Positions 21,356 through 36,387 of a DNA stretch of 36,831 nucleotides are shown piece after piece. A program made the translations under genes and the position numbers. The DNA comes from Candidatus Tayloriibacteriota bacterium. Lineage in GTDB: Bacteria; Patescibacteriota; Minisyncoccia; Phycocordibacterales; PALSA-1337. The notes under the pieces are model-generated. The model was given only the letters and a program-made list of their open reading frames with translations, was not told the DNA's origin and made no database searches. The stretch spans positions 1 to 36,831 of the forward strand of contig JANXRK010000065.1 in assembly GCA_025353045.1 (NCBI GenBank), read 5' to 3'. Numbering within the stretch: position 1 is the first letter of the stretch; each line of letters opens with the position of its first letter.

Positions 21356-22342
21356 TCATTCCACCAGCCGGAGCCGGTAGAAGAGATGTGATCGTGCCGT
21401 GGACTTGTCCGTGAAGGACTGCACTCCTGCCGGTGTGACCGGGAAGCGTCCGTTTGGAAAATCAATCCAGTTGACCAGGTCCGAAGACATCTGGTACTGG
21501 ACGAACATTCCAACCATCCCACCATGGCCCCTGAGGAGGGCTTGCGGTGATGGGGGAGGTTCCACAGAAGACTTCTTCCCATCCGCGTCCACAGGTGGAT
21601 AGAGGACGAGAGAGAGGGAGAGCGGAGGGACTTCGAGCTCCTGGCCTTGTTCGAAGGCTTGGAAAACCAGGTCACCGGTGCTGCTGCTTGAGAGGGTCCG
21701 GATTTGGATTGTGACGTCCTTATCCAAGACGAGCTCTGTTGCAATGAACACGTACGAGATGCCCGAGCGATGGATGATCTCCACAACCTTGGCGTTTTCG
21801 GTGGTCTGATTTGAGTCGGTGTTGAAGATGACGTCGTCACCCCTCGAAGCCGTCACGCCAATCCACTTGAGGTGGTTGAAGGTGTGCCCGATACGTCGGG
21901 GGAATTCCATCTTCACCCCAGACAAGTCCGGTAGAGTGTAACCAGCCGCCATTTTCACGAGGCTAAATTGCACACCCGGGACCTGAAAGTAGTTGATGAT
22001 TCCATCCTCATCGTGGTCGTCCCAGTAATACTGAAGGGCGAAGGCGACAATAGAGTAGGGCAGACTTCTGTCTTGACCTGCCACCTCTGTCGTGACCACT
22101 CTCAGTGCAGCCTTGTGAAGCTGCGACTGGAAAAACGATTCCAGCTCCGCCCGGTTGCTAACTCTGACGTTTGCAACCTCTTGGAGCAAGACTCGGTCTC
22201 CTTGCTTGAGAAAGATATCCAACTCCCTGACTTGCGCCAGCGAGTCCTTCTCCAAGCTGCCTCCCGTAGGGAAGGCCGTGATCTGCGCTTGCACCCCAAC
22301 AAAGGAGATGAGCGCAAACACGATTGCGTAGAACGCTTTCAT
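21356..22342 (-). CDS. secreted hypothetical protein encoded on a GC-rich island
   Basis: I prefer the Met at 22342, where GGAG lies 9 nt upstream. This gives the signal peptide MKAFYAIVFALISFVGVQAQ. The C-terminus is ...QMSSDLVNWIDFPNG...SHLFYRLRLVE. G+C is 36/60 in line 21361-21420 and 31/60 in 21901-21960, against 14/60 in flanking line 22441-22500. Confidence 0.6.
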   Translation of the reverse strand: MKAFYAIVFALISFVGVQAQITAFPTGGSLEKDSLAQVRELDIFLKQGDRVLLQEVANVRVSNRAELESFFQSQLHKAALRVVTTEVAGQDRSLPYSIVAFALQYYWDDHDEDGIINYFQVPGVQFSLVKMAAGYTLPDLSGVKMEFPRRIGHTFNHLKWIGVTASRGDDVIFNTDSNQTTENAKVVEIIHRSGISYVFIATELVLDKDVTIQIRTLSSSSTGDLVFQAFEQGQELEVPPLSLSLVLYPPVDADGKKSSVEPPPSPQALLRGHGGMVGMFVQYQMSSDLVNWIDFPNGRFPVTPAGVQSFTDKSTARSHLFYRLRLVE

Positions 22343-22428
22343 GATTGTAATCTCCGATGTGGCCTGTTGGCCGAGTTTACTGTTCCGAAAAATCTTCTGT
22401 AGCACGTCGAAGTGCTGTTACTGTTAGT

Positions 22429-22494: not shown

Positions 22495-24252
22495 TTATTT
22501 TACAAGGCTTTTTAGAAAATCAAAAGGGATGGTAATTATAACCCTTGCACCCATATTTTCTCCTTCTGAATTTATAGTCAGACTACCATGATGGGCTTCC
22601 ACGATCGATCTCGATACAGATAAGCCAATTCCCATACCGGTCGGATTTTTATTCTGAACTCTTTTGCTTCTGTAAAATGTTTTTTCAAATAAATTATTTT
22701 TTTCTTCCGTCGTAATTCCAACCCCTGTATTCTTAATTGTTATTTTAAATTGATCGTCATCAAATTCCGTCTCTATTTTTATGCTTCCTTCTGATGTATT
22801 GTAACGAATAGCATTTTCTATGATTACTAAAAGAACTTCTCGTATTTTGTTTGCATCGACTTTTATTTCCGGCCAATCAGCGATGTCTTTGAGGTAAGTG
22901 ACTGACAGATCCATGCTCGTTATGTCTATTTCTAGTTCCTTTAGGATTTTTTCTAGTGAAGGAAGCAGACTTAATTTTGATAAATTTAATATTTGCGATC
23001 CTGTTTTCATCTTAGCAATATTTTTGAAATCATCAGCAATGTCTGTTAAGTGTTGGACGGAAACCAGAGCCTCTTCTAAAGTTTTTTGTGCGTCAGTTTC
23101 AATCTTTACATATTTTCCAGAAATTATTTCATTGAGTCTATTATTTATATTCGTGATCGGCACTCTTAAATTGTGTTGAGCGATACTTATGAAAGTATCC
23201 TTTGTTTCACTCAACTTTTCGAGCTCTCTTCGGGCTTTTTTCTCTAATTCAAATGACTTGTTAATTTCTTGTGTTTGTTCAGCCACCTTGTCAGAGAGAG
23301 AAGAATTGAAAGATTTGAGAGATAGAGCAAGCGATTCGATTTTTTCGAGGTTGTCTTGTTCTTGTTTTCCGATTTGAATAAGAAGAATGCCAAGGATTAT
23401 TGAGATGATAAAAGTAATTATGGTAATAATGTGACTTGTATTTGCGTCTGTGATGGTAATGAGAGAGCCGATGAGAATCCATAGAGTAAAAACTAGGAGA
23501 TTCCGGTTGACGAGTTTGAGGTTGAAGAGATTGAATTTGATAGTGCTATAAATAAGGAAAATAAGAAATACGGGCATACCTAGTAAACCTAACTCTCCTA
23601 ATTTCCAGTCATTCGTGAAACTTCCAACCATATTGCCACAACTAAACGCAAGCAAAAATAACACTATACCTAAGGATAAAAGAACGACCTTCTTCTTATT
23701 GATTGGATTTTTACTCTCAATAAATTGCTTTGAAACGTAAAATATAATCCAACAAGTATATATAATCTCGATTATATAGCTATAATAAAGCGCAACTGGT
23801 CCCTCGACACTCATGCAAGTAATTATATTAAATCCTGACAGCGTTAACCTGCTAGGTAAAAAAACTAATATGGGGAGATATAATATTGCCAACGTTAGCT
23901 TTTGATAAAAAGAAATATCTCTTTCCTCAATTAGTACTTGAATTAAATAAAGCCCCCCAATGTAAATTAGCGGTTCAACTAATAAGGTAAATGCCCAGAC
24001 TGTCATTATGATGTCACCTCTGTCGCATGCCCAAAAAACTAGAGAAAATATTACCCATAAACTAAAAGGAATGAGAATTATGAGTAAGATCTGATTTGAT
24101 AATACTTTCCTACCTTTAATAATAATAAGTAAAGCAATTGTTATGCTGATAATAATCAGGGGTAAGTGGGAGTACAGTACTAGAGCCGGTATGTCTTTAG
24201 TTGCATTAAAATATCCGGTATTTGTCATGCTACATTGGGATAAATTTTCCAT
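22495..24252 (-). CDS. sensor histidine kinase with an N-terminal 7-TM (HisKA_7TM-like) domain
   Basis: It has about seven TM helices, a coiled coil, the H-box FISIAQHNLRVPIT and the HATPase_c blocks NAIRYN, IKNTGVGI and GMGIGLSVSRSIV. It is colinear with the kinase at 26443..28104. Confidence 0.85.
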   Translation of the reverse strand: MENLSQCSMTNTGYFNATKDIPALVLYSHLPLIIISITIALLIIIKGRKVLSNQILLIILIPFSLWVIFSLVFWACDRGDIIMTVWAFTLLVEPLIYIGGLYLIQVLIEERDISFYQKLTLAILYLPILVFLPSRLTLSGFNIITCMSVEGPVALYYSYIIEIIYTCWIIFYVSKQFIESKNPINKKKVVLLSLGIVLFLLAFSCGNMVGSFTNDWKLGELGLLGMPVFLIFLIYSTIKFNLFNLKLVNRNLLVFTLWILIGSLITITDANTSHIITIITFIISIILGILLIQIGKQEQDNLEKIESLALSLKSFNSSLSDKVAEQTQEINKSFELEKKARRELEKLSETKDTFISIAQHNLRVPITNINNRLNEIISGKYVKIETDAQKTLEEALVSVQHLTDIADDFKNIAKMKTGSQILNLSKLSLLPSLEKILKELEIDITSMDLSVTYLKDIADWPEIKVDANKIREVLLVIIENAIRYNTSEGSIKIETEFDDDQFKITIKNTGVGITTEEKNNLFEKTFYRSKRVQNKNPTGMGIGLSVSRSIVEAHHGSLTINSEGENMGARVIITIPFDFLKSLVK

Positions 24253-24472: not shown

Positions 24473-25063
24473 ATGTATTCAGACAATTTAAATATACTAG
24501 GAATCGTAGCAGGTTTATTATCAATGGTATCCTTTATTGTCTATTATATTTCTATTTTTCGTAGAAAAACGATTCCCAATAAGACAACATGGTTTATATT
24601 GACCATTGTTGGTATTCTTATAGCTTCTAGTTATTATGCAGTAGGAGCAAGAGAGACTATATGGGTTCCGATTGTGTATATAATTGGTCCTTTTATAACG
24701 TTTATACTTTCTCTCAAATTTGGCCAAGGAGGATGGTCATCGTTTGATAAAATTTGCTTAATTTTATCTATCGTAAGTATTATTGTTTGGATGATCTCAG
24801 GTTATCCATTATTGACTCTGTTGATAAATATTTTTATTGATCTACTTGGAATACTCCCTACAGTTAGGAAGACCTATTTAAATCCTAACAGCGAAGATTT
24901 ACTTACTTGGTTGCTTGTCGTTATAGAGAGCATCCTGAACTTGTTTGCAATAAGAGAGTGGGTTTTTGGAATATATGTTTATCCTGTATATATGTTGGTC
25001 TTTAATGGATTGATATTATTCCTTATTTTGCTACCGAAATTAAAGAACATGCTTAAAGGATGA
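24473..25063 (+). CDS. 7-TM membrane protein, possibly PQ-loop/SWEET-like
   Basis: Seven hydrophobic helices are present. The loops after TM1 (YYISIFRRKT) and TM5 (LGILPTVRKTYLNPNSEDLL) resemble PQ-loop motifs, but with PT rather than PQ. The family call is weak. Confidence 0.5.
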   Translation: MYSDNLNILGIVAGLLSMVSFIVYYISIFRRKTIPNKTTWFILTIVGILIASSYYAVGARETIWVPIVYIIGPFITFILSLKFGQGGWSSFDKICLILSIVSIIVWMISGYPLLTLLINIFIDLLGILPTVRKTYLNPNSEDLLTWLLVVIESILNLFAIREWVFGIYVYPVYMLVFNGLILFLILLPKLKNMLKG

Positions 25064-25441
25064 TTTCTTTATCCCTCGTCTTTTAAACCAACCCTTTTCG
25101 TAGTCTTCATAGTCACATGTTAATTCCTCTCCAATATGAATATCTTTTTTCGCTATATCTCTGTCTGGTTTCGACTGAATATTTGGTTTTTTAGAATAGT
25201 TAATAAATCTTTGATCATCGCAACAAAGTATGTACTTCTTCAGTTTAAAGTCGAGATAGAGATAATCTAAAAATCTTTCACGGAAACTTTCTGGTAGTAT
25301 ATCTATACATTCTTGAGTGAAGCAGGTATCGTATTCAGGATCGTACTTCCACGTGATTGTTCCCTTTGGAATAAATTCCGCTGCGAATAGCCCTATTCCA
25401 TGCGTGGAACTCTTGTCTAATTTTGTTTTTACTAGTAACAT
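25040..25441 (-). CDS. minimal SET-domain protein (putative protein-lysine methyltransferase)
   Basis: The 133-aa ORF has HGIGLFAAEFIPKGTITW (GxG motif), RFINYSKKPN (NHSxxPN-like) and IGEELTCDYEDY (ELxxDY). Confidence 0.75.
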   Translation of the reverse strand: MLLVKTKLDKSSTHGIGLFAAEFIPKGTITWKYDPEYDTCFTQECIDILPESFRERFLDYLYLDFKLKKYILCCDDQRFINYSKKPNIQSKPDRDIAKKDIHIGEELTCDYEDYEKGWFKRRGIKKSSFKHVL

Positions 25442-26442: not shown

Positions 26443-28104
26443 ATGAACTTTCCAGCGCTCTGTAATTTTCCAGGACCTCAATACCTGGTAATTTCTGAAA
26501 ACGTTCCTCCTCTTGTGTATTATTCACATCTGCCAATAGCACTAATCTCCCTCCTAATCGGTTCATATGTGTTTTTGAAAAATCGCAAAGCACTCGCAAA
26601 CCAAATAATTTTAGTGACGACATTAGCCTTTTCACTTTGGGTTTTCCTCGACTCAGTCTTTTGGGCTAGTGATAGAAGTGACGTCATTATGTTTGTCTGG
26701 GCGATGCAGGTCTTGGTCGAGCCGCTTGTTCATCTAAGTGCTCTTTATTTGTTGTATGTATTACTTTATAAAAAAGATACATCTTTTCTCTCTAAGTCAG
26801 TTTTGTTAGCTATCTATTTGCCGCTTGTTGTTCTTATTCCAACAAAGTATATCCTAACTTCGTTCGATATTGGAACATGTTTAAGTCAGGAGGCAGTTTA
26901 CTCGTATTATTCATATGTTATTGAGATTGTTTATACAATAACACTTGTGATTGTTGGTACTAAAAGGTTTATTTCTGAAAAAAATAAACAAACTAAAAAA
27001 GAAATTGTTTATTTAACTGCAGGTATGATTGTATTACTTTTTGCATTTTCCTGGGGAGCGATTACAGGGAGTTTTACTGAAGATTGGAATTTTGCGCAGT
27101 ATGGACTCTTCGGAATGCCCGTATTTTTGGCATTTCTTTCGTATACGATTGTGAAATTTAAATCTTTTAACCTCAAACTCATCGGCTCTAATGTTTTGGT
27201 GATCTCGCTGTGGATATTGGTTGGATCGCTTCTTGCTATTGAGGATATCAACATTAGTCATGCTGTTACCGGTATCACCCTCATCATTTCCATCATCTTC
27301 GGTCTTATTCTTATCCAATCCGTCCGCAAGGAAGTGAGCCAGCGTGAAAAGATCGAGAAGCTTGCTGGTGATCTTAAGGTTGCCAACACTCGCCTCCTTG
27401 AACTTGATAAACAAAAATCTGAATTCGTTTCTTTTGCCACTCACCAGCTCCGCGCGCCTCTGACTGCTATGAAAGGTTACGCCTCACTCATTCTCGAAGG
27501 AGAAATGGGGCAGACCACTCCGGAGACTAAGCAGGCAATTAGTCGTATCTTCGAATCTTCAAAGACACTTACTACGATTGTGGATGATTATCTCAATATT
27601 TCTCGAATTGAGCTTGGTACTATGAAGTATAGCTTCGATATGCTTGATCTTAAGCAAATGGTTGAGAATGTTATTGGCGAACTTAAGCCTAATATTGATA
27701 AAAAAGGTCTCAAGCTGTCATTTAACGCTGATGCCTCTGCTCGGTTTATGATTCATGCTGATAAAGATAAGCTCAAGCAGGTTATCGCTAATCTTATCGA
27801 CAATTCAGTTAAGTACACTCCTTCGGGATCTATTGCTATAGCTTTGATGCGAAAGAGTGCTGATAGGAAAATCCTATTCTCAATCAAAGATACTGGCGTT
27901 GGTATTGCTCCTGAGGTTATGCCAAAGCTTTTTGCCAAGTTCGTACGGGCTGAGAATGCCAATAAGCAGAATATTTATGGAACTGGTCTCGGACTTTTCG
28001 TGGCAAAGGATATCGTCACTGCACATAAAGGTAAACTTTGGGCTGAATCTGCTGGTGAGGGGAAGGGTTCAACGTTTTTCATGGAATTGGACATGGAGGT
28101 GTAG
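26443..28104 (+). CDS. sensor histidine kinase with an N-terminal 7-TM (HisKA_7TM-like) domain
   Basis: It has a 7-TM N-terminus (PPLVYYSHLP...), the H-box FVSFATHQLRAPLTAMKGY and the N, G1 and G2 boxes NLIDNSVKYT, IKDTGVGI and GTGLGLFVAKDIV. It starts 13 nt after the methyltransferase stop. Confidence 0.9.
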   Translation: MNFPALCNFPGPQYLVISENVPPLVYYSHLPIALISLLIGSYVFLKNRKALANQIILVTTLAFSLWVFLDSVFWASDRSDVIMFVWAMQVLVEPLVHLSALYLLYVLLYKKDTSFLSKSVLLAIYLPLVVLIPTKYILTSFDIGTCLSQEAVYSYYSYVIEIVYTITLVIVGTKRFISEKNKQTKKEIVYLTAGMIVLLFAFSWGAITGSFTEDWNFAQYGLFGMPVFLAFLSYTIVKFKSFNLKLIGSNVLVISLWILVGSLLAIEDINISHAVTGITLIISIIFGLILIQSVRKEVSQREKIEKLAGDLKVANTRLLELDKQKSEFVSFATHQLRAPLTAMKGYASLILEGEMGQTTPETKQAISRIFESSKTLTTIVDDYLNISRIELGTMKYSFDMLDLKQMVENVIGELKPNIDKKGLKLSFNADASARFMIHADKDKLKQVIANLIDNSVKYTPSGSIAIALMRKSADRKILFSIKDTGVGIAPEVMPKLFAKFVRAENANKQNIYGTGLGLFVAKDIVTAHKGKLWAESAGEGKGSTFFMELDMEV

Positions 28105-28133: not shown

Positions 28134-29012
28134 ATGAGAGTAAAAATCTTAAAGAGAATAAATTGTATAAGATTGAAGGGTTCAGGGTTTTTTGAAAAAG
28201 ATGAGGTTCAGTATAGTGATAAAATTTCTGAAGTCTGGAACGAACCAATACAAATTAGTATTGATATAATTAGGCAATTAATCAAAAAACAGTTAGTTTC
28301 AGTTTATTTGAGGGGATCAGTTGAAAATAATACGCAAATTAGTCACATTTCTGATATTGACTTAGTTATTATATTTTCTAAAAGCATTTCTTTGGTGGTG
28401 AGGAATAAGTTACAAAGGCGGCTAGATGTTGTGAGGAAAGATTATCCTTTCGTCAGCAAAGTTGACCTCATGTATATTAATATTTTGGATATTAAATCAA
28501 CTTCCAAAAGAGTTCTTGTAAAGCTAACATCAAGATGTGTTTTTGGGTCGTCAGTTGAGAGGTTGATACCAAATTTACAAGCAGGTAATGACATTGCAGT
28601 TACCCTTAATACGCTTAAGGCGGATCTGCACAGTTTTCTTGGTAGTAATAAATATTCTTCAAAAGAAAAATGCACCTGGATGATGAAAAAGATATTAAGG
28701 TCAGGGGCTGAACTTGTCTCCGAACGATCAGGATTATATATTAGAGACTTGTACTGCTGTTATAAAGTTTTTATTAAGTTTTACCCTAAATATAGAAAAG
28801 AAATGTATGAATGTTTAAAGTTAGCCATCGCACCATGTGGAAAAACAAAAAAAGTTAGAGAACTTGTTGTACACACCACTTCCTTTTTGATGAATGAGTC
28901 TGTGAGACTTAATATAATAAACAACAACCCCAGAGCGGGGTTGTCTCGAGTGACTGGTCACAAGGTCGCCTCTGCTAGTAACCGTTCGGTTGTAACGAGG
29001 GGAGTGCTTTGA
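28134..29012 (+). CDS. Pol-beta-superfamily nucleotidyltransferase, ANT/AadA-like architecture
   Basis: The NTase motif is VYLRGSVENNTQISHISDIDLVIIF, with the third carboxylate in SKVDLMYI, followed by a helical C-terminal domain. The last ~27 aa (PRAGLSRVTGHKVASASNRSVVTRGVL) are encoded antisense to the neighbouring GC-rich gene. Confidence 0.6.
   Translation: MRVKILKRINCIRLKGSGFFEKDEVQYSDKISEVWNEPIQISIDIIRQLIKKQLVSVYLRGSVENNTQISHISDIDLVIIFSKSISLVVRNKLQRRLDVVRKDYPFVSKVDLMYINILDIKSTSKRVLVKLTSRCVFGSSVERLIPNLQAGNDIAVTLNTLKADLHSFLGSNKYSSKEKCTWMMKKILRSGAELVSERSGLYIRDLYCCYKVFIKFYPKYRKEMYECLKLAIAPCGKTKKVRELVVHTTSFLMNESVRLNIINNNPRAGLSRVTGHKVASASNRSVVTRGVL
28924..28944 (-). terminator. hairpin terminator of the GluRS-like gene, lying inside the 3' coding end of the NTase gene
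   Basis: The + strand reads AACAACCCC-agagc-GGGGTTGT. On the minus strand it is followed by TGTTTATTATATT. Confidence 0.5.
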
Positions 29013-30070
29013 CGAATCTTTTTGTAGACTTTGGAAATGGCATCTCGCTCAAGCATGTTCGATGCTGTGGCGAAAGAGACGCGTTCAGGTTTTTCAGAGG
29101 TGTTTTGTTGGTATCTTATCCTTGTATTTTTTGCGACTACCACATCACCTTCACAAAACACACTTTCAAGGCGGGTCTGCTGGTTACTCATGAGTAACGC
29201 AACTCCCCAATCTTTTACTGATACACCATGTTTATCTTCCAGGAAGGGTGTTCTTGGTAATTTCATCACTGGATTTTGGAATTTTATCCCAGGATGAATG
29301 AAAAGATGGACTTTCACATGCGGAAATAGAGTGGAGCTTATAGCAATAGCTCGACAGACTTGGGTTAAGGTCGTAAAGCCAACGACCAACCCCACCTCAT
29401 TGATTTTAAATTTATGTGCCAGAAAGTAGGGGAATATTCCTAGTGCACAATCAGGATCAAGAACTAAACCATCTAACAAAAGATCGCCTTGTTCTGGATT
29501 CCTGAGTTTCGTTATAATGAGCTGGTGCCTAGTAATCTCCCCATAGACTGTTGAGAATCTTCGTGCCTGAACTGATGGCGTGCAAAAAATATCTAGTTTA
29601 CCTAAAGCTGTAATCGCTCGTACTTCACTTTCTGCCGTCTCAATCATTCCGTGGCATCTTGTACAGACTTTGTCGGTGAAGTTATGACCTCTTCTTTGTA
29701 CCCCAATTACATTCAGCGCGCTCGTTGGAAGTTCTACAACCCCACACGTACAGCGTGAAAGGTTAATCGTCGCTCGCTGGGTTTTTCCTAACAGTGATTG
29801 CGTGACAAAATTTTGGAAATCACTATCAAGATCGGTTGCTATATCACACTCCTCAGTCGTGACACCAACCGCAGTCAAATCATGCCCGAAGTAGTTGACG
29901 ATTCTTTCGGGGTTGTTGGGTAGGGTGTTGCGTTGAAGTCCAAGAAGGTTAATTGGTAGAATAAGTCTTGATCCAGTAAGTCTTGCGAGTGTTTTGGCAG
30001 TGAGAATGGTTGAGAAGACTTTAAGACTTCTACCATGCCGATAACTTATCGGTAAAGTGGTAATGATCAT
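28958..30070 (-). CDS. diverged class Ib aminoacyl-tRNA-synthetase catalytic-core paralog (GluRS/GluQ-RS-like), without an anticodon-binding domain
   Basis: It is colinear by eye with GluRS/YadB as I remember them. The beta-loop-helix start is MIITTLPISYRHGRSL (HIGH region degenerate). LQRNTLPNNPERIV compares with LERSTPEAIEAI. FQNFVTQSLLGK..RCTCG ... CTRCHG compares with the CxC...C(R)H zinc knuckle. VGFTTLTQVCRAIAI compares with RGxDxxxxTxRQI. PVMKLPRT compares with KLSKR. G+C is elevated: 31/60 in line 29701-29760. Confidence 0.45.
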   Translation of the reverse strand: MIITTLPISYRHGRSLKVFSTILTAKTLARLTGSRLILPINLLGLQRNTLPNNPERIVNYFGHDLTAVGVTTEECDIATDLDSDFQNFVTQSLLGKTQRATINLSRCTCGVVELPTSALNVIGVQRRGHNFTDKVCTRCHGMIETAESEVRAITALGKLDIFCTPSVQARRFSTVYGEITRHQLIITKLRNPEQGDLLLDGLVLDPDCALGIFPYFLAHKFKINEVGLVVGFTTLTQVCRAIAISSTLFPHVKVHLFIHPGIKFQNPVMKLPRTPFLEDKHGVSVKDWGVALLMSNQQTRLESVFCEGDVVVAKNTRIRYQQNTSEKPERVSFATASNMLERDAISKVYKKIRQSTPLVTTERLLAEATL

Positions 30071-30121
30071 GGCGGTCCTGTGGCGGTTGTATTTTCAATG
30101 GTCTTTCCGTACTATATCATC

Positions 30122-30817
30122 ATGAAGACGGAAATCAAACACATTGAAATTTCCAAGCTAGTACTTAAGTATTTCGGGGTAGCTAGAGTTGTGTGTGTTG
30201 TTACTTATGGCTCATCGATAGATGAAGTTGGAAAAAAACCTGCAGATATTGATATTTTTATTTTACTTAAAAAATTTGATATAATGGATTTTACAGTTGG
30301 TTCAGTGCTTAAAAAAAGATTGCCTTCAGTATCGATATTTGTTGATTATGAGGATTCAATTATAAAGAAAGGGATAAATAATTATCAATTTGGTAGACAT
30401 GGTGTCTATTTCATAAAGATTCTTGAAAATGGTATTTGTTTATATGGTAAAAACAAATATATACAATGGTCAAAATTAGTTACAAACAAAAAAATAAAGT
30501 TAGATTTAAGATATAGAATCGATGAATATTTTTATAGGATATATAGAGAGATTACGGATAGAGCAGATTTGGACGTTATTAGAAAATATTTATGCAGAAT
30601 AATTATTGATATATTACTATACGAAAACAAAATTACATTCCCCGAGGTATCACAAGTACATTATCTACGTTTGATTCAAAATTATCTTACTTATAATAAA
30701 GATATACGTGAAGATTTATTCACTTCTATTATTAATATTAAATATAAAAATAGTGACCATTATTTATCTAGTTTGATTAATGAGTTGTACAAGATTTATT
30801 TAAAAATATATAATTAG
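30122..30817 (+). CDS. Pol-beta-superfamily nucleotidyltransferase (second copy)
   Basis: VVTYGSSIDEVGKKPADIDIFILL is the GS...DxD motif, with the third carboxylate in SIFVDYED, followed by a helical C-terminal half. I prefer the ATG at 30122 (MKTEIKH) to the GTG at 30080. Confidence 0.55.
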   Translation: MKTEIKHIEISKLVLKYFGVARVVCVVTYGSSIDEVGKKPADIDIFILLKKFDIMDFTVGSVLKKRLPSVSIFVDYEDSIIKKGINNYQFGRHGVYFIKILENGICLYGKNKYIQWSKLVTNKKIKLDLRYRIDEYFYRIYREITDRADLDVIRKYLCRIIIDILLYENKITFPEVSQVHYLRLIQNYLTYNKDIREDLFTSIINIKYKNSDHYLSSLINELYKIYLKIYN

Positions 30818-30820
30818 TAT

Positions 30821-31534
30821 ATGTCAATAATATATCATGGAGACCTCGCTTTTGAACTTTTTGAAGTCGCTCAAAAAAAAGGTACCATTATTCTAGCGGA
30901 TGGTTTACCTGGAAATCCAATATCTAAAAAGGAGTCGATAGCTGAATGGAACAGAAGAGGTTATGATATTGTGTTTCCACGCTACCTAGGATCATGGGAG
31001 TCTAAAGGAAGATTTTTAGAACATCCTCCACAACATGATTTTGAAATTTTAATTGACGCACTTAGTAAGGGAATAAATAATGTAGATAAAGTTTATATCG
31101 CAAAAAAAATATATTTACTTGGAACAAGCTTTGGTGGGGGGGTCATTATGTCAATAAAAGATGATACAAATATTGATAAAATATGCGCACTTTCTCCAAC
31201 TATCACTTATAGAGGTATTCCAGATATCAATACCCTAGCTTCATATTTGCAAACAAAATATCCAGGAAGCTATCGTTTTAAGGTATCTGATTTTGATAAA
31301 TTATTAAATGACGAAATTTCTTCACCAGTAAACAAATTCAGTCTTCCATCAAGTAAGGTCATGATTTTGGCTGGGGAACAAGACAATCAGATATCAATTA
31401 CTGAGTTGAGATCCTTTGCCACGCAAAAATCAATTAAACTAATCTCAGATCCTCAAGTTGGACATATCACCTTGTCTAAACTCAAAGTAGAACATTACGA
31501 TCAAATAGACACTTTCTTTTTGGGTCAAAACTGA
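30821..31534 (+). CDS. alpha/beta-fold hydrolase (dienelactone hydrolase / S9-like)
   Basis: The nucleophile elbow is LLGTSFGGG (GxSxG). The acid is in LAGEQDNQI and the His in VGHITL. It starts 3 nt after the NTase stop. Confidence 0.65.
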   Translation: MSIIYHGDLAFELFEVAQKKGTIILADGLPGNPISKKESIAEWNRRGYDIVFPRYLGSWESKGRFLEHPPQHDFEILIDALSKGINNVDKVYIAKKIYLLGTSFGGGVIMSIKDDTNIDKICALSPTITYRGIPDINTLASYLQTKYPGSYRFKVSDFDKLLNDEISSPVNKFSLPSSKVMILAGEQDNQISITELRSFATQKSIKLISDPQVGHITLSKLKVEHYDQIDTFFLGQN

Positions 31535-31608: not shown

Positions 31609-33357
31609 ATGCTCATCGAAGATTCACAGTTAAATAAATTTATCATCGATTCGAATCTCGTATCCAAAGCTGACCTTGATGTGGCTCAAAAGGAAGCTGA
31701 TAAGAAAGGAGTTAGAATAGGTGAGATTTTGGTGAGTACGGGTAAAATTACTGAAGACAATCTCCGTCGTATGCAGGCATATGTTCTAGGTATTCCATTC
31801 GTGGATCTCAAAACTAGAAAAATTCCTTTTGAAACTCTCTCACTTATCCCTGAACCTGTAGCGCGTACGCATAATATTGTAGCTTTTAAGAAAGACGGGG
31901 ATAGTCTCGAAGTGGCAATGCTTGATGTTGATGATCTTTCAGCTATCGATTTTATTAAAAAGAAGGTAAATCTAAAGATTCTGGCCCGACTCACTGATGT
32001 TGAGTCAATGAAGAATGTTATTGTTCAATACCAAAAGAGTCTAAAGGCTGAATTCGGAGATATTATCCAAAAAGAGTCAGCAACTCTCAAGACTATTGCC
32101 GAAGAGTCAGGGGAACCAGCTTCAGAGGAGGATCTAAAGAAAATCGCTGAGGATTTGCCAGTGGTACGCATTGTGGACACGCTTTTGAAGCATGCTATTT
32201 TGCAAGACGCATCTGATATTCACATTGAACCTATGGATGATCAACTCATGGTTCGATATCGAATCGATGGTTTGCTTCATGATGCTATGGTTTTGCCCAA
32301 AAATGCCGAATCTTCTATTACAGCGCGTATTAAAGTTCTTTCAAATCTTAAGCTTGATGAAAAGCGACTCCCACAAGACGGACGATTCAAGATCGAAATG
32401 AATAATGAGAAGGTAAGTTTCCGAGTTTCTATTTTGCCAACGTACTATGGTGAAAAAACCGTTATGCGTCTCCTTCGCGAGAATGTATCGGGCTTTACCT
32501 TGGAGTATCTAGGTTTCCATGGAGAAGGGTTGGAAAGAATTCACAATGCTACAAAGCTTACGACGGGTATGATTCTTACGACTGGACCGACCGGATCTGG
32601 AAAAACCACAACACTATACACAGTTCTCGATATTTTGAATCAACCTGATGTAAATATTTCAACGATTGAAGATCCCGTGGAATATCAGATGAAAAGAATT
32701 AATCAAAGTCAGGTTAAGCCGGAAATTGGTTTTACTTTCTCAATAGGACTACGAACACTTGTCCGTCAGGACCCGGATATTATCATGGTGGGGGAGATTC
32801 GAGATAATGAAACAGCTTCGCTGGCGGTCAACGCGGCGCTGACTGGGCATCTTGTGCTCTCGACACTGCACACGAACAGCGCCGCGGGTGCCATTCCGCG
32901 TCTTTTAGATATGAAAATCGAGCCCTTCCTTCTTGTTTCAACTATAAATATCATCATCGCTCAGAGACTCGTTCGAAAACTTTCCGATAAAAAGGAAAAA
33001 TATATTCTTTCAAAAGACGAATTAGCTGTTTTGGCCAAAACTGTCGATCTTGATAGAGTTTTGAAAATTCTTAAAGAAGAAAAAATAGTGAAAGCTACTG
33101 ATGATTGGAATAAGATCTCTTTTTGGAAACCCGTGGCTTCAAAAGATGATGATGGATATAAGGGTCGAGTGGGAATTCATGAGGTACTCAAAGTTTCGCA
33201 GCCAATTAAAGATTTAATTATTAAGGGTTCAACAAATTCAGAAATAGAAGGTCAAGCTAAGAAAGAGGGAATGATAACAATGCTAGAAGATGGTATATTT
33301 AATGCAGTTCTAGGGACAACTACTATCGAGGAGGTGCTGCGAGTAATATCAGAATAG
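31609..33357 (+). CDS. pilB: type IV pilus / type II secretion assembly ATPase (PilB/GspE family)
   Basis: It has an N-terminal MshEN/T2SSE_N domain, Walker A GPTGSGKTTT, Walker B DPDIIMVGEIRD and the His box TGHLVLSTLHTN. Confidence 0.9.
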   Translation: MLIEDSQLNKFIIDSNLVSKADLDVAQKEADKKGVRIGEILVSTGKITEDNLRRMQAYVLGIPFVDLKTRKIPFETLSLIPEPVARTHNIVAFKKDGDSLEVAMLDVDDLSAIDFIKKKVNLKILARLTDVESMKNVIVQYQKSLKAEFGDIIQKESATLKTIAEESGEPASEEDLKKIAEDLPVVRIVDTLLKHAILQDASDIHIEPMDDQLMVRYRIDGLLHDAMVLPKNAESSITARIKVLSNLKLDEKRLPQDGRFKIEMNNEKVSFRVSILPTYYGEKTVMRLLRENVSGFTLEYLGFHGEGLERIHNATKLTTGMILTTGPTGSGKTTTLYTVLDILNQPDVNISTIEDPVEYQMKRINQSQVKPEIGFTFSIGLRTLVRQDPDIIMVGEIRDNETASLAVNAALTGHLVLSTLHTNSAAGAIPRLLDMKIEPFLLVSTINIIIAQRLVRKLSDKKEKYILSKDELAVLAKTVDLDRVLKILKEEKIVKATDDWNKISFWKPVASKDDDGYKGRVGIHEVLKVSQPIKDLIIKGSTNSEIEGQAKKEGMITMLEDGIFNAVLGTTTIEEVLRVISE

Positions 33358-33374
33358 TTTATTTAAAAAAAGTC

Positions 33375-34598
33375 ATGTCACATTTTATTTATAAAGCAAA
33401 AAAGGCAAGTGGAGAAATATACAAAGGCGAAAAAGATGCTAATGATCGTTATGATCTATATAAAATTCTCAAAGAATCTGGCGAAGAGGTTATCGATGTG
33501 ACAGAAAAATCTGGAAAAGGCATGTCTTTGAAAAATATCACTATCACGCTTCCTTTTTTAAACTCTATAAAAGCACAAGATAAAATAAATTTTGCAAGAA
33601 ATCTAGGTTCTATGATTACAGCTGGTTTAGCAATGTCTCGCGCACTCAACGTTATGGAAAGACAAACTAAGAATCCTGCACTGAAAAAAGTTCTTATTGC
33701 TTTGCAAAAGGATATTAGTGAGGGTAAGACCCTGAGTCAAGCTATGGGTAATTTTAAAAATGTTTTCTCATCACTTTTCGTTTCTATGGTTGCAGCTGGG
33801 GAACAAAGTGGTTCGTTAGCTGAGTCTTTGAGAATCACTGGTCTGCAAATGGATAAATCTTTTGCCCTTCAGAGAAGAATACGAGGAGCTATGATGTATC
33901 CAAGTATTATTTTCTTGGCCATGGGACTTGTGGCTATTTTGATGTTGACCTATATCGTACCGACATTGATGAAAACCTTTTTGGAATTGCACGTAGACCT
34001 ACCGGCTTCGACTAAGTTCGTTCTTTTTGTTAGTTCAATGCTTAGAGATCATGGGCTTATTGTTTTGTCGTCCGCTTGTATTCTTATCGGTGGACTCATC
34101 ACATGGTCAAAGAAAGAGAGTGGGAAAAGAGTTTTTCATTACGCGATTTTGAAAATACCTGTAATAGGAAATTTGGTTAAAGAAGTAAATTCCGCAAGAA
34201 CAGCTCGAACTCTTTCATCTCTCCTTAGTTCAGGTGTTGATGTTGTTGAATCAGTGCGTATTACAACTGAAGTTATTCAAAATGTTTATTACAAAGATAT
34301 ATTAAAAAAAGCGGGTGAAGCAATCCAAAAAGGAGAACCAATTTCTAAACTCTTCACTGAAAATGAAAAGTTTTATCCAATTTTCTTAGGAGAAATGATG
34401 AGTGTGGGTGAAGAGACCGGGAAAATAGGGGAGATGCTTATAGGCGTTGCTGTGTTTTATGAAGATGATGTCGATCAAAAGACCAAAGACATGTCTACAG
34501 TTATCGAACCATTTCTTATGGTAATTATCGGAGCCGCGGTAGGATTCTTTGCGGTTGCTATGATCACTCCAATGTATTCACTCGTAAATGTTATATAA
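33375..34598 (+). CDS. pilC: type IV pilus platform protein (PilC/GspF family)
   Basis: It has two GspF-type repeats (FARNLGSMITAGLAMSRAL and TARTLSSLLSSGVDVVESV) and three TM segments. Confidence 0.9.
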   Translation: MSHFIYKAKKASGEIYKGEKDANDRYDLYKILKESGEEVIDVTEKSGKGMSLKNITITLPFLNSIKAQDKINFARNLGSMITAGLAMSRALNVMERQTKNPALKKVLIALQKDISEGKTLSQAMGNFKNVFSSLFVSMVAAGEQSGSLAESLRITGLQMDKSFALQRRIRGAMMYPSIIFLAMGLVAILMLTYIVPTLMKTFLELHVDLPASTKFVLFVSSMLRDHGLIVLSSACILIGGLITWSKKESGKRVFHYAILKIPVIGNLVKEVNSARTARTLSSLLSSGVDVVESVRITTEVIQNVYYKDILKKAGEAIQKGEPISKLFTENEKFYPIFLGEMMSVGEETGKIGEMLIGVAVFYEDDVDQKTKDMSTVIEPFLMVIIGAAVGFFAVAMITPMYSLVNVI

Positions 34599-36387
34599 AA
34601 CATTATTAAAAAATAGAAAAGGCTTTACTCTAGTCGAAACGATCGTTGGTATCGGAGTCTTTCTTGTCATTGCCACGGCTTCATATCAAGCATATGTCAG
34701 TCTTTTTCTTCTTATTAATGAAAATCAATATAAAATTATTGAGCTTAATCTCGCCAATGAACAATTTGAGATCGTTAGGAATCTCTCATATGCCGATATT
34801 GGAATTCCTGGAGGAATTCCTAATGGTAAGGTTCCGCATGTGCAAACACTCACTCGAGGAGGTATAACTTTTACCGTGACAACTACAATACGAAATATCG
34901 ATTTGCCTTTTGATGGACAAATCGGAAGTACTACAAAAAATGATCTATCACCGGCAGATAATAAAGCTGTGGATGTTGAGGTTGCTTGTCCAACATGTAA
35001 AAGCTCAAGTTCTGTCACTTTGAGTACAACTGTAGCCCCTAAAAATCTCGAGACTGCTTCTACAAATGGAGCCCTTCTTATAAAAGTATTTGATTCAAAC
35101 GGCGTTCCAGTCTCAGATGCTGCTGTCCATATTGTAAATGCTTCATCGACAATCACTATTGATGATGTTACAGATGTCGATGGAATACTTACTATTGTTG
35201 ATGTTCCTCCAGCTTCTAATGCATATAAAATTACAGTTAGTAAGGCGGGATATTCGACAGATCAAACATATCCTTCAGGTGCAGTAGAGAATCCGACTCC
35301 GACTAAGCCAAACGCTACAGTTATTGTTCAACAATTAACTCAGATTAGTTTTTCTATTGATAAAATTTCAGTGTTCGCATTTTCTTCCGTCACACCTGAT
35401 TGTGTTGTTGTGCCAAATATTGATTTTTCCCTAACAGGATTAAAGAAGATTGGTACAAATATTCCAAAATATTCGCAAAATTTAATTACAAATAGTTCCG
35501 GAACATATACAAATTCAGTAATGGAATGGGATTCATATACTGTAAATGGTATTGATGGGGCTTACGATATCGTCGGTATTAATCCGCTTAACTCAATAAG
35601 TTTAGGGGCAAACACAACACAGAACGTTTCTTTGATAGTTGAACCTAAAAACGCTAAAAGTCTTTTGATGACTATTAAGGATTCTACAACGTTACTTCCA
35701 ATTACAAATGCTGTAGTTCAAGTAACAAACGGTGGATACGATGTCACTCAAACAACAGGTCGTGGTTTTATAAATCAAACTGATTGGTCAGGAGGAAGTG
35801 GGCAAGTAGATTTTACGGATGAAACAAAGTATTTTACTGATGATGGAAATATTGCCGTATTAAGTCCAACAGGCGAAGTGAAATTAAAAAGTGCTTTTGG
35901 AGCTTATAATACAAGCGGAAGTCTTGAATCTTCAATAATTGACACGGGTTCGCCAAGTAATTTTTATAATCTTATCTGGACGCCGACAGATCAGCCAGTT
36001 CTTACTGGGCCAAACAGTGTCAAATTCCAATTTGCAACAAACGCTACAAGTACAGCAACGACAACATGGACGTATAAAGGTCCTGATGGAACATCATCTA
36101 CCTACTACACTTCAGCAAACGCAGCACTTTCTACAGTCCACAACGGTGATCGATATGCTCGTTATAAGGTATTTTTAAATACCACGAGTACTACGACTAC
36201 ACCAAATATTTCAGATGTTTCATTTACAGAAACTTCTTCATGTACTCCTCCTGGCCAAGCAGTTTTCTCAGGATTGGCATCGGGAACATATCATGTAGTG
36301 GTTGGAAAGAGTGGATATGCAACATCAACTATCGACGTTCCAGTTAGTACTGAGTGGAAGGAACAGGAAATAATCTTAGGACCATAA
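34588..36387 (+). CDS. giant pseudopilin: prepilin-type N-terminus fused to beta-sandwich (CarboxypepD_reg-like) domains
   Basis: The class III signal is KNRKGFTLVETIVGIGVFLVI. VHIVNASS..DVDGILTIVDVPPASNAYKITVSKAGYS and a second ..YHVVVGKSGYAT are carboxypeptidase-regulatory-like repeats. It overlaps pilC by 11 nt. Confidence 0.7.
   Translation: MLYKTLLKNRKGFTLVETIVGIGVFLVIATASYQAYVSLFLLINENQYKIIELNLANEQFEIVRNLSYADIGIPGGIPNGKVPHVQTLTRGGITFTVTTTIRNIDLPFDGQIGSTTKNDLSPADNKAVDVEVACPTCKSSSSVTLSTTVAPKNLETASTNGALLIKVFDSNGVPVSDAAVHIVNASSTITIDDVTDVDGILTIVDVPPASNAYKITVSKAGYSTDQTYPSGAVENPTPTKPNATVIVQQLTQISFSIDKISVFAFSSVTPDCVVVPNIDFSLTGLKKIGTNIPKYSQNLITNSSGTYTNSVMEWDSYTVNGIDGAYDIVGINPLNSISLGANTTQNVSLIVEPKNAKSLLMTIKDSTTLLPITNAVVQVTNGGYDVTQTTGRGFINQTDWSGGSGQVDFTDETKYFTDDGNIAVLSPTGEVKLKSAFGAYNTSGSLESSIIDTGSPSNFYNLIWTPTDQPVLTGPNSVKFQFATNATSTATTTWTYKGPDGTSSTYYTSANAALSTVHNGDRYARYKVFLNTTSTTTTPNISDVSFTETSSCTPPGQAVFSGLASGTYHVVVGKSGYATSTIDVPVSTEWKEQEIILGP

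Follow-up and report, generated by a model that had tools for sequence, protein, structure and literature searches.

A predicted methionyl-tRNA synthetase-like core without ATP signatures, encoded beside nucleotidyltransferase and esterase genes in Patescibacteria

We analyzed a 36.8-kb stretch of DNA from a bacterium of the candidate phyla radiation (CPR, Patescibacteria), Candidatus Tayloriibacteriota bacterium, contig JANXRK010000065.1. This stretch is called the window in the following and all positions are given in window coordinates. The subject of our analysis is a gene of the minus strand at positions 28958..30070, termed X, which codes for a protein of 370 amino acids. X is very probably a class Ia aminoacyl-tRNA synthetase (aaRS) core which resembles methionyl-tRNA synthetase (MetRS), lacks both ATP signatures as well as the anticodon-binding domain, and belongs to a conserved module with a nucleotidyltransferase (NT2) and an esterase (HYD). 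Synteny and fold together suggest that the synthetase fold has here been put to a new use outside translation. We also propose how the module could work; for identity, synteny and mechanism taken together we estimate a probability of about 50%.

The fold of X was predicted with AF2. With an alignment of 54 sequences of the X family (alignment A1, which is also the basis of our conservation statistics) the model reached a mean pLDDT of 91.7 and a pTM of 0.91; with the single sequence the prediction was useless (pLDDT 32). The model shows a Rossmann fold, a zinc knuckle within the connective peptide (CP) insertion and stem-contact-like helices. In a Foldseek comparison with the PDB, ranks 1-16 are all MetRS structures (E 1.9e-10 to 2.2e-8, TMq 0.52-0.66), the best of which are 7wpi with a TMq of 0.66 and 5gl7 with an E-value of 1.9e-10. 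The first GluRS follows at rank 17 (E 2.4e-8, TMq up to 0.53), and after it come the GluRS-like C-terminal domain of PyrN, CysRS and MshC. GluQ-RS is missing from the best 50 matches. In BFVD, a collection of predicted viral structures, MetRS again ranks first (E 1.1e-7), followed by LeuRS, GluRS, CysRS, ArgRS and GlnRS; TyrRS is matched with a probability of 0.30-0.33, the class Ia/Ib enzymes with 1.00. Every match at E<=1e-3, in the best 50 from the PDB as well as in BFVD, is a class I aaRS or a paralogue of one. At the level of the predicted structure, the class I aaRS fold (HUP/Rossmann with CP insertion) is thus confirmed, in agreement with a reading of this DNA made earlier from the sequence alone. 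That the protein has no anticodon-binding domain had been noticed as well: the MetRS targets are covered only partially (TMt 0.37-0.50 vs TMq 0.55-0.66) and X ends with three short helices, without an anticodon-binding bundle. Judged from the model, the subclass is MetRS-like, class Ia, and not GluRS or GluQ-RS, an assignment which sequence methods cannot confirm.

The sequence-only reading had instead assigned X to GluRS/GluQ-RS and named GluQ-RS as precedent. According to this explanation X would be a further-diverged GluRS/GluQ-RS (YadB-like) paralogue that activates an amino acid and loads it on a modified tRNA base, with the nucleotidyltransferases (NTases) and the hydrolase as accessory tRNA modifiers. 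The class I fold without anticodon-binding domain is indeed shared with GluQ-RS and the GluRS structures are significant in Foldseek. Moreover, E. coli GluRS and GluQ-RS have a CxC...C zinc site, of which the CxC...C site of X is reminiscent. However, MetRS precedes GluRS in two structure libraries, with a TM-score of 0.66 vs 0.53, and GluQ-RS is not among the best 50 matches from the PDB. GluQ-RS activates glutamate with ATP, and the loss of the HIGH motif in 54 of 54 family members together with a degraded KMSKS motif argues against such an activation. The faint sequence signals of X point to class Ia only, and no tRNA gene is consistently nearby. We therefore regard a GluQ-RS-like role as very unlikely.

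The faint signals just mentioned are a LeuRS segment with E 0.26, found with the family profile in PDB sequences, and the Pfam domain tRNA-synt_1 with E 0.041 in one of the 54 members. Neither phmmer nor profile searches of PDB sequences gave a significant link of X to an aaRS. With hhalign, the X profile was aligned to MetRS, GluRS, IleRS, ArgRS, TrpRS and a class II control; none of these alignments is significant, MetRS being the best and the class II control the worst. The E. coli MetRS sequence used in these comparisons was checked as 1f4l.

The alignment of the family shows which parts of the synthetase core are kept. HIGH is absent in all 54 members; F-x-x-L-x-T-P stands in its place, without a conserved His. 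The position of KMSKS lies about 10 residues past H259-P260, a register which we take to be that of KMSKS relative to the 'HG' of MetRS. At this position most members have a [KR][MLI]S relic, P0014 alone keeps KMSK, and the window sequence reads VMKLP. The strings YRHGRS (residue 10) and MKLPRT (residue 269), which had been noted in place of HIGH and the KLSK loop, are both present in the window protein, and X has no functional HIGH or KMSKS. A zinc knuckle of the form CxC...CxxCH had also been described. Its strings are present (C107xC109 and C136xxC139-H140) and the four Cys residues are invariant, but H140 is not conserved, and neither is H12 of YRHGRS. Besides the four Cys residues D205 is invariant. 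N41, G110, P165, R188, D207, P260, W298 and R353 reach a conservation of at least 90%, and T5-L6-P7, G44, E113, P115, S187, W210 and H259 are also strongly conserved. The string LPINLLGL at residue 38, which had been taken for a replaced amino-acid pocket, is present too; N41 and G44, the N-terminal positions with the best conservation, are part of it. Among the residues kept in the cleft are T-L-P behind strand 1, N41, S/R188, D205-x-D207 and H259-P260. The conserved cleft positions appear to match, in order, the MetRS elements 'LPY', the Asp52 region, 'DISR(233)', 'VWLDAPIGY' and 'H323-G'. In the non-significant hhalign alignment C136xxC139 of X is set on C158xxC161 of E. coli MetRS; the first pair of X, a CxC, lies elsewhere. 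The conserved cleft residues suggest that X has kept the ability to bind a ligand of aminoacyl type or an acceptor end.

X was initially difficult to place in a family. It has no match in Pfam, NCBIfam, PADLOC or PDB sequences, a word-indexed search of 5.8 billion proteins retrieved only the query itself, and a scan of species-representative genomes with X alone recovered no locus. NT2, too, seemed to be an orphan in the word-indexed search and clear homologues exist nonetheless. An exhaustive HMMER search of 1.84 billion cluster representatives (E<=1e-3) gave 56 relatives of X, nearly all of them 340-397 amino acids long and most aligned end to end, with 22-29% identity; a profile search with alignment A1 added at least two more members. 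Two of the relatives carry names, 'Patescibacteria group bacterium' and 'Candidatus Parcubacteria bacterium'. The family is previously undescribed, very probably descends from the catalytic core of a MetRS-like class Ia synthetase and is, as far as records are named, confined to Patescibacteria (CPR). In the full-text literature we found no description of an X-like family or of a module of an aaRS-like protein, NTases and an esterase.

The possibility that X is a chance open reading frame (ORF) or an orphan was rejected, the result of the word-indexed search being misleading. At the composition of X, 370 open codons would arise by chance with a probability of about 3e-10, and 5000 shuffles gave no open run longer than 218 codons. 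The GC content at codon positions 1/2/3 is 0.51/0.41/0.38, and an AGGA element is located 6 nt 5′ of the ATG. A terminator-like hairpin with a 10-bp stem followed by GTTTATTATA (28923..28945, minus strand) lies 13 nt 3′ of the stop codon and is the sole terminator-like site within 26-32 kb, on the strand of X. One could still think of a decaying synthetase duplicate, or a spurious ORF, with unrelated neighbors: X has lost the signature motifs, its window copy is off the consensus at several conserved positions and Pfam and NCBIfam are silent. Yet full-length homologues have kept invariant residues at such low identity, the fold is confidently predicted, and the neighboring genes, a fusion among them, are conserved across clades. 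The family is under purifying selection, and this family-wide conservation effectively refutes decay, which we consider extremely improbable.

The gene neighborhood was compared in about 20 loci, several of which lie on short contigs. When X was used as seed, NT2 was found to adjoin X in 10 of 10 loci (the window, L003, L004, L005 and L007-L012). HYD is encoded in six of these (the window, L004, L009, L010, L011 and L012). L007 codes instead for a divergent alpha/beta hydrolase whose triad is the same, L003 and L005 stop at the contig edge, and L008 is without HYD. NT1, a second nucleotidyltransferase, is found among these loci only in the clade closer to the window (the window, L003, L004, L005 and L009). 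In this clade X points away from NT2-HYD and towards NT1, and the gaps are as small as 17 nt, the distance between X and NT2 in L004 and L005. In the distant clades the genes follow each other on one strand as X>HYD>NT2 or X>NT2. Gene order and orientation hence vary by clade, adjacency is kept, and the flanking genes differ from locus to locus.

A metagenome scan seeded with NT2 yielded 12 loci, about 10 of them distinct, of which eight could be assessed (L098 and L102 are cut by contig ends). X or a related protein, X2, is adjacent in seven of the eight. L097 and L099 repeat the layout of the window, L093 has X beside NT2, and L096, L100 and L101 show the order NT1>NT2(>HYD). NT1 is present in L096, L097, L099, L100 and L101 and fused to NT2 in L094/95 and L098; HYD is present in L094/95, L097, L100 and L102-104. 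In L103 (243-1386) and L104 (1125-2268) a truncated NT2-like protein of 142 amino acids, comprising the C-terminal helical part only, is encoded directly 5′ of a HYD homologue. Both loci may be degenerate or reduced versions of the module.

X2 has about 417 amino acids and in L094/95, L096, L100 and L101 takes the place of X, divergent upstream of the NTases (all on the minus strand: L094:2785-4077, L101:2761-4041, L096:1-666 and L100:2-349). It matches the X profile at E ~1e-10 over positions 55-275 and carries CxxC...CxxC and 'ISKAREYGLP'; no match was found for it in Pfam or PDB sequences. Class Ia synthetases have the motif 'ISRQRxWGxP', and by this motif X2 looks closer to canonical class Ia synthetases.

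As far as gene order tells, the core module is X (or X2), NT2 and the esterase, with NT1 as an add-on in part of the family. Of the four-gene cassette proposed earlier, the conserved neighborhood in distant genomes is upheld; its extension to NT1 holds for part of the family only. A sensor histidine kinase gene next to the module was found in the window, L003, L004 and L007 but neither in the 12 NT2-seeded loci nor in L008-L012. It was rejected as a core component, being a neighbor in some lineages only. Likewise, tRNA genes are not consistent neighbors of X across the loci. A cluster of Thr-GGT, Tyr-GTA, Thr-TGT and Trp-CCA tRNA genes is located upstream of X in L010 (1772-2449) and L012 (4027-4856, 145 nt upstream) and is absent elsewhere; it probably reflects local synteny common to the two loci rather than a functional link.

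NT1 (28134..29012, plus strand, 292 amino acids) is a nucleotidyltransferase of the Pol-beta superfamily with an N-terminal NTase domain and a C-terminal helical domain. Pfam NTP_transf_2 matches it with 5.5e-5, above the gathering score, and the invariant set comprises R60-G61-S62, S73-D74-x-D76 and D111. The best PDB match of the NT1 family profile is ANT(9) 6sxj (E 7.3e-5, core region only). NT2 (30122..30817, plus strand, 231 amino acids) is a two-domain Pol-beta nucleotidyltransferase of the MNT/KNTase type. Its ATG agrees with the N-termini of the homologues; a GTG at 30080, upstream of this ATG, is also open. The Pfam domain Polbeta is found in NT2 below the cut-off (0.012), and the family profile matches the minimal NTase 9xbd_E with E 8.1e-7 and HI0073 and KNTase weakly. 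G30, D42, D44, Y76, G109, N111, K155 and R159 are invariant, G30 and D42xD44 in 15 sequences. The third acid is E or D in 13 of 15 homologues; the window sequence has Ser at this position and D75 four residues further. Both NTases had been described as keeping GS...DxD and the third carboxylate: in NT1 the set is complete and invariant, in the window NT2 the GS and DxD are there and the third acid is replaced. A classification among known NTases, which had been called for, gives ANT(9) as nearest for NT1 and the minimal MNT type as nearest for NT2; NT1 is far below curated cut-offs, however, and NT2 is below that of Pfam.

The two NTases are not close paralogues, and in some metagenome loci they are fused into an ORF of about 506 codons (L094:4154-5671, L095:4173-5690 and L098:124-1650), in which NT1 residues ~9-270 are followed by NT2 at ~273-503. 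The two fusion sequences (L094/95 and L098) are clearly different, so that the NT1-NT2 fusion is a true one. We take this fusion as strong evidence that both NTases act together. The G-S motif of NT2 reads G-P in four of 15 sequences, namely in the fusion copies and in some other loci with NT1. The change hints at a heterodimer in which one of the NTase halves may not be catalytic. As proof of a partnership with NT1 the G-P change was rejected; it is seen in four of nine loci with NT1 vs none of five without, which is suggestive but too few for significance.

HYD (30821..31534, plus strand, 237 amino acids) is a small alpha/beta-fold protein in which Ser103 (within GxSxG), Asp188 and His215 are invariant and in canonical order. 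Pfam Hydrolase_4 is found below the cut-off (1.9e-4) and the family profile is nearest to cinnamoyl, feruloyl and chlorogenic-acid esterases (E 8.5e-10 over ~200 residues). By these matches HYD is a serine esterase of the alpha/beta-hydrolase fold, with carboxyl-ester hydrolases as nearest relatives.

These relatives bring a resistance or detoxification cassette into consideration. NT1 and NT2 would O-nucleotidylylate an antibiotic-like compound, the esterase would cleave it, and X, a dead synthetase, would act as decoy or specificity subunit which binds an aaRS inhibitor mimicking an aminoacyl-adenylate. The nearness of NT1 to ANT(9)/AadA, the weak match of NT2 to KNTase and the similarity of HYD to small carboxyl-esterases fit such a role, as do a pocket retained in X without the catalytic ATP motifs and the sensor kinase beside the module in some lineages. 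However, the NTase matches are limited to the shared core of ~70 residues; against NCBIfam ANT(9), NT1 scores 25.1 bits over residues 38-108 where the cut-off is 340. X has no sequence-level kinship to the housekeeping enzyme and hence is an unlikely mimic of a drug target, and we know of no natural antibiotic in common knowledge that is directed at MetRS. We regard a resistance function as unlikely.

The MNT-type character of NT2 could also be read as the sign of a conflict module similar to toxin-antitoxin systems. Following the logic of type VII systems, NT2 with or without NT1 would AMPylate and thereby neutralize X, a toxin that sequesters tRNA or aminoacyl-tRNA, and the esterase would be an effector or reset the system. 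The best PDB sequences for NT2 are minimal NTases of the MNT antitoxin type, and NT1 has weak matches to CD-NTase cyclases, to an anti-phage NTase model and to PDC-S09. The strict pairing of X and NT2, the patchy distribution and the variable flanks are also as expected of such a module, and in L011 an integrase is found nearby. On the other hand, all parts stay below the PADLOC and NCBIfam cut-offs: PADLOC has no match whatsoever for X, NT2 and HYD, MntA scores 12-14 bits vs a cut-off of 60 and the PADLOC cyclase matches span ~40 residues. An assignment to a known defense system was therefore rejected, as NT1 shows core-motif matches only. Further, the locus tables contain no HEPN or Cap domains, phage and plasmid homologues are lacking, the chromosomal settings are of the housekeeping type (in L008 the module lies between the genes of ArgRS and IleRS), and the conserved cleft of X resembles that of an enzyme or ligand binder. 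A toxin-antitoxin-like function thus appears improbable to us.

For the module we suggest the following mechanism, which as a whole is tentative and must be considered rather doubtful in its details. X would no longer make an aminoacyl-adenylate and would serve as a substrate-binding or acyl-transfer subunit. In its retained pocket it could hold a pre-activated aminoacyl ester, for instance the 3′ end of an aminoacyl-tRNA by analogy to the cyclodipeptide synthases (CDPSs), or an amino-acid-like ligand. The only NTP-dependent step would then be carried out by an NT2 homodimer or an NT1-NT2 heterodimer, namely O-nucleotidylylation of the same substrate or of X. Finally, the esterase could reverse or edit the ester bond. 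One may speculate beyond this, at long odds, that X and X2 represent a second independent conversion of a class I core into an ATP-independent user of aminoacyl-tRNA or aminoacyl ester, now from a class Ia ancestor. Together with NT1-NT2 and the esterase it might, in the ultra-small CPR bacteria, make or control a product that is both aminoacylated and nucleotidylylated, be it a metabolite, a component of the cell surface or a tRNA 3′ end.

Several observations weigh against the reading of X as a non-adenylating MetRS-like core in a conserved module. The sole profile alignment between X and MetRS is non-significant (E 0.016-3e-4, probability 3-38%), and the residues of X were mapped on MetRS by motif order and predicted secondary-structure register only. 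In L103 and L104 an NT2-like gene and HYD occur with no X within 1.1 kb. The window X deviates from the consensus at W210L, W298Q, R287D and R191N, and also at R188K; with the Ser at the third-acid position of NT2, this may mean that the window copy is partly degenerate. X is basic (median pI 8.9), but this gives no specific support for RNA binding, the neighbors being basic as well. Finally, X itself might use ATP if the invariant D205xD207 provides a new Mg-NTP site.

Taken to its end, the last point would make X a still ATP-dependent amino-acid ligase comparable to MshC or to the MetRS-like domain of the hydrazine synthetases. With a non-canonical site, e.g. D205xD207 and Mg2+, it would esterify or amidate a non-tRNA acceptor, and the product would be processed by the NTases and the esterase. 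The aaRS-derived ligases MshC and PyrN-C are significant structural neighbors of X, the invariant acidic pair and Asn41 are compatible with catalysis, P0014 still has 'KMSK', and known MetRS paralogues form an O-aminoacyl ester (PMC2922099, PMC12376268). Against a ligase stand the X family's missing ATP motifs of the HIGH/KMSKS type and the fact that no cupin or lysine N-monooxygenase neighbor is found in any locus. All ligase paralogues known to us retain the HIGH/KMSKS-type motifs. For MshC this is documented (PMC9736012). An ATP-dependent ligase is hence an improbable explanation, and we prefer a MetRS-like core that does not adenylate.

In the window the genes of the module are closely packed. 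The ORFs and the spacings which had been read from the sequence are exact, with 29 nt between kinase and NT1, an overlap of 55 nt between NT1 and X, 51 nt between the start codons of X and NT2, and 3 nt between NT2 and HYD. The divergent region between X and NT2 (30071..30121) must contain or overlap both promoters; its X-proximal end carries the AGGA, a Shine-Dalgarno-like element. The overlap of NT1 and X is explained by a tail of about 25 amino acids at the C-terminus of the window NT1 (28935-29012, plus strand; PRAGLSRVTGHKVASASNRSVVTRGVL), which is absent from all homologues and runs through the terminator hairpin and the 3′ end of X. In comparison with the homologues this tail looks like the product of a late stop codon rather than a functional extension. 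The GC-rich region at 28.9-30.1 kb was scanned for structured RNA with the Rfam gathering and E-value thresholds and gave no family. The GC content of X is above that of NT2 in nearly every locus compared, and the GC step in the window is therefore attributed to amino-acid composition and not to an insertion. Further, tblastn detected no phage or plasmid homologues of the module, and a mobile-element origin was rejected on this ground.

The module is embedded in an ordinary chromosome, with genes for a XerC/D-type recombinase, a CCA-adding enzyme, RNase Y, ClpP, trigger factor, NusA and type IV pili in its surroundings. We consider it an accessory, patchily distributed function outside core translation. 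The sensor histidine kinase upstream of NT1 (26443..28104, plus strand) has multiple transmembrane segments and HisKA (Pfam 2.4e-15) and HATPase_c (1.2e-25) domains. A second histidine kinase is encoded within 6 kb of it at 22495-24252 on the minus strand; no response regulator was found in the window. Immediately upstream of the first kinase there is a pair of a SET-domain protein (25040-25441, minus strand, Pfam 2.4e-10) and a class I SAM methyltransferase (25317/25467-26429, plus strand) with TRM5/TYW2-like matches. The SET gene is divergent from the long ORF of the methyltransferase and overlaps it, and the pair is not conserved beside the module in other loci. Directly 3′ of the esterase, type IV pilus genes follow (31609-36387, plus strand). 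They code for a PilB-like ATPase, a platform protein resembling PilC and a pilin-like protein of 599 amino acids whose N-terminus carries a methylation motif; in the other loci these genes do not accompany the module either. At 21356-22405 (minus strand) a sharply bounded GC island of 52-57% between flanks of ~33% coincides with an ORF of 349 codons with an N-terminal signal peptide. It has no Pfam match and its Rfam matches are sub-threshold at chance level; probably the gene was horizontally acquired and codes for a secreted protein.

New chemistry has come to light time and again from re-purposed synthetase cores, as in the CDPSs, MshC, GluQ-RS and the hydrazine synthetases. The X family, whose named members are Patescibacteria, would add a MetRS-derived core which has lost both ATP signatures and still has conserved cleft residues. 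As the module escapes word-indexed and profile-library searches entirely, modules of a similar kind are probably under-annotated.

X and the MetRS core itself have the Rossmann fold in common, and in both a zinc knuckle rich in Cys, possibly a homologous one, sits in the CP insertion. The order of motifs is also the same: an 'LP' in strand 1, an Asp/Asn in strand 2, an 'ISR' after CP and an 'H[GP]' before the KMSKS position. MetRS is also the best structural match in two libraries. Unlike MetRS, X has no HIGH, no functional KMSKS, no anticodon-binding domain and no significant sequence or profile similarity to it. The zinc ligands are CxC and CxxC in X vs two CxxC knuckles in MetRS, and X is encoded with NTases and an esterase. 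NT1 and NT2 for their part share the G-S...DxD core and the layout of an NTase and a helical domain with the KNTase, ANT(9)/AadA and MNT nucleotidyltransferases. They differ from these in that they form families of their own, match only the core and below the cut-offs, have no HEPN partner and are tied to X.

Other re-purposed synthetases were compared as well. GluQ-RS (YadB) and MshC are, like X, truncated or re-purposed class I paralogues without a tRNA-charging role in translation. They retain the ATP-dependent activation of the amino acid, however, and X is nearer to MetRS than to GluRS or CysRS. The MetRS-like domain of the hydrazine synthetases (Spb40/AzsN; the 'MtRS paralog' of Aravind et al. 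2010) joins an amino acid and an N-hydroxylated amine to an O-aminoacyl ester and always occurs with a cupin and a lysine N6-monooxygenase, either fused or linked to them (PMC2922099, PMC12376268). As proposed for X, a MetRS-derived domain is used outside translation. In contrast to these enzymes X has no cupin or lysine N6-monooxygenase partner in about 20 loci, has no ATP motifs and is so far restricted to Patescibacteria. The CDPSs are cores derived from class I aaRSs which have lost HIGH and use aminoacyl-tRNA as substrate (PMC3105412, PMC2922099). HIGH/KMSKS and the anticodon-binding domain are lost in the CDPSs as in X, and the CDPSs keep the aminoacyl pocket. They are of class Ic (TyrRS/TrpRS) origin, have no zinc knuckle and are associated with tailoring oxidases, whereas X is class Ia-like and is accompanied by NTases and an esterase. 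The CDPSs are the closest functional precedent for an aaRS core that does not adenylate.

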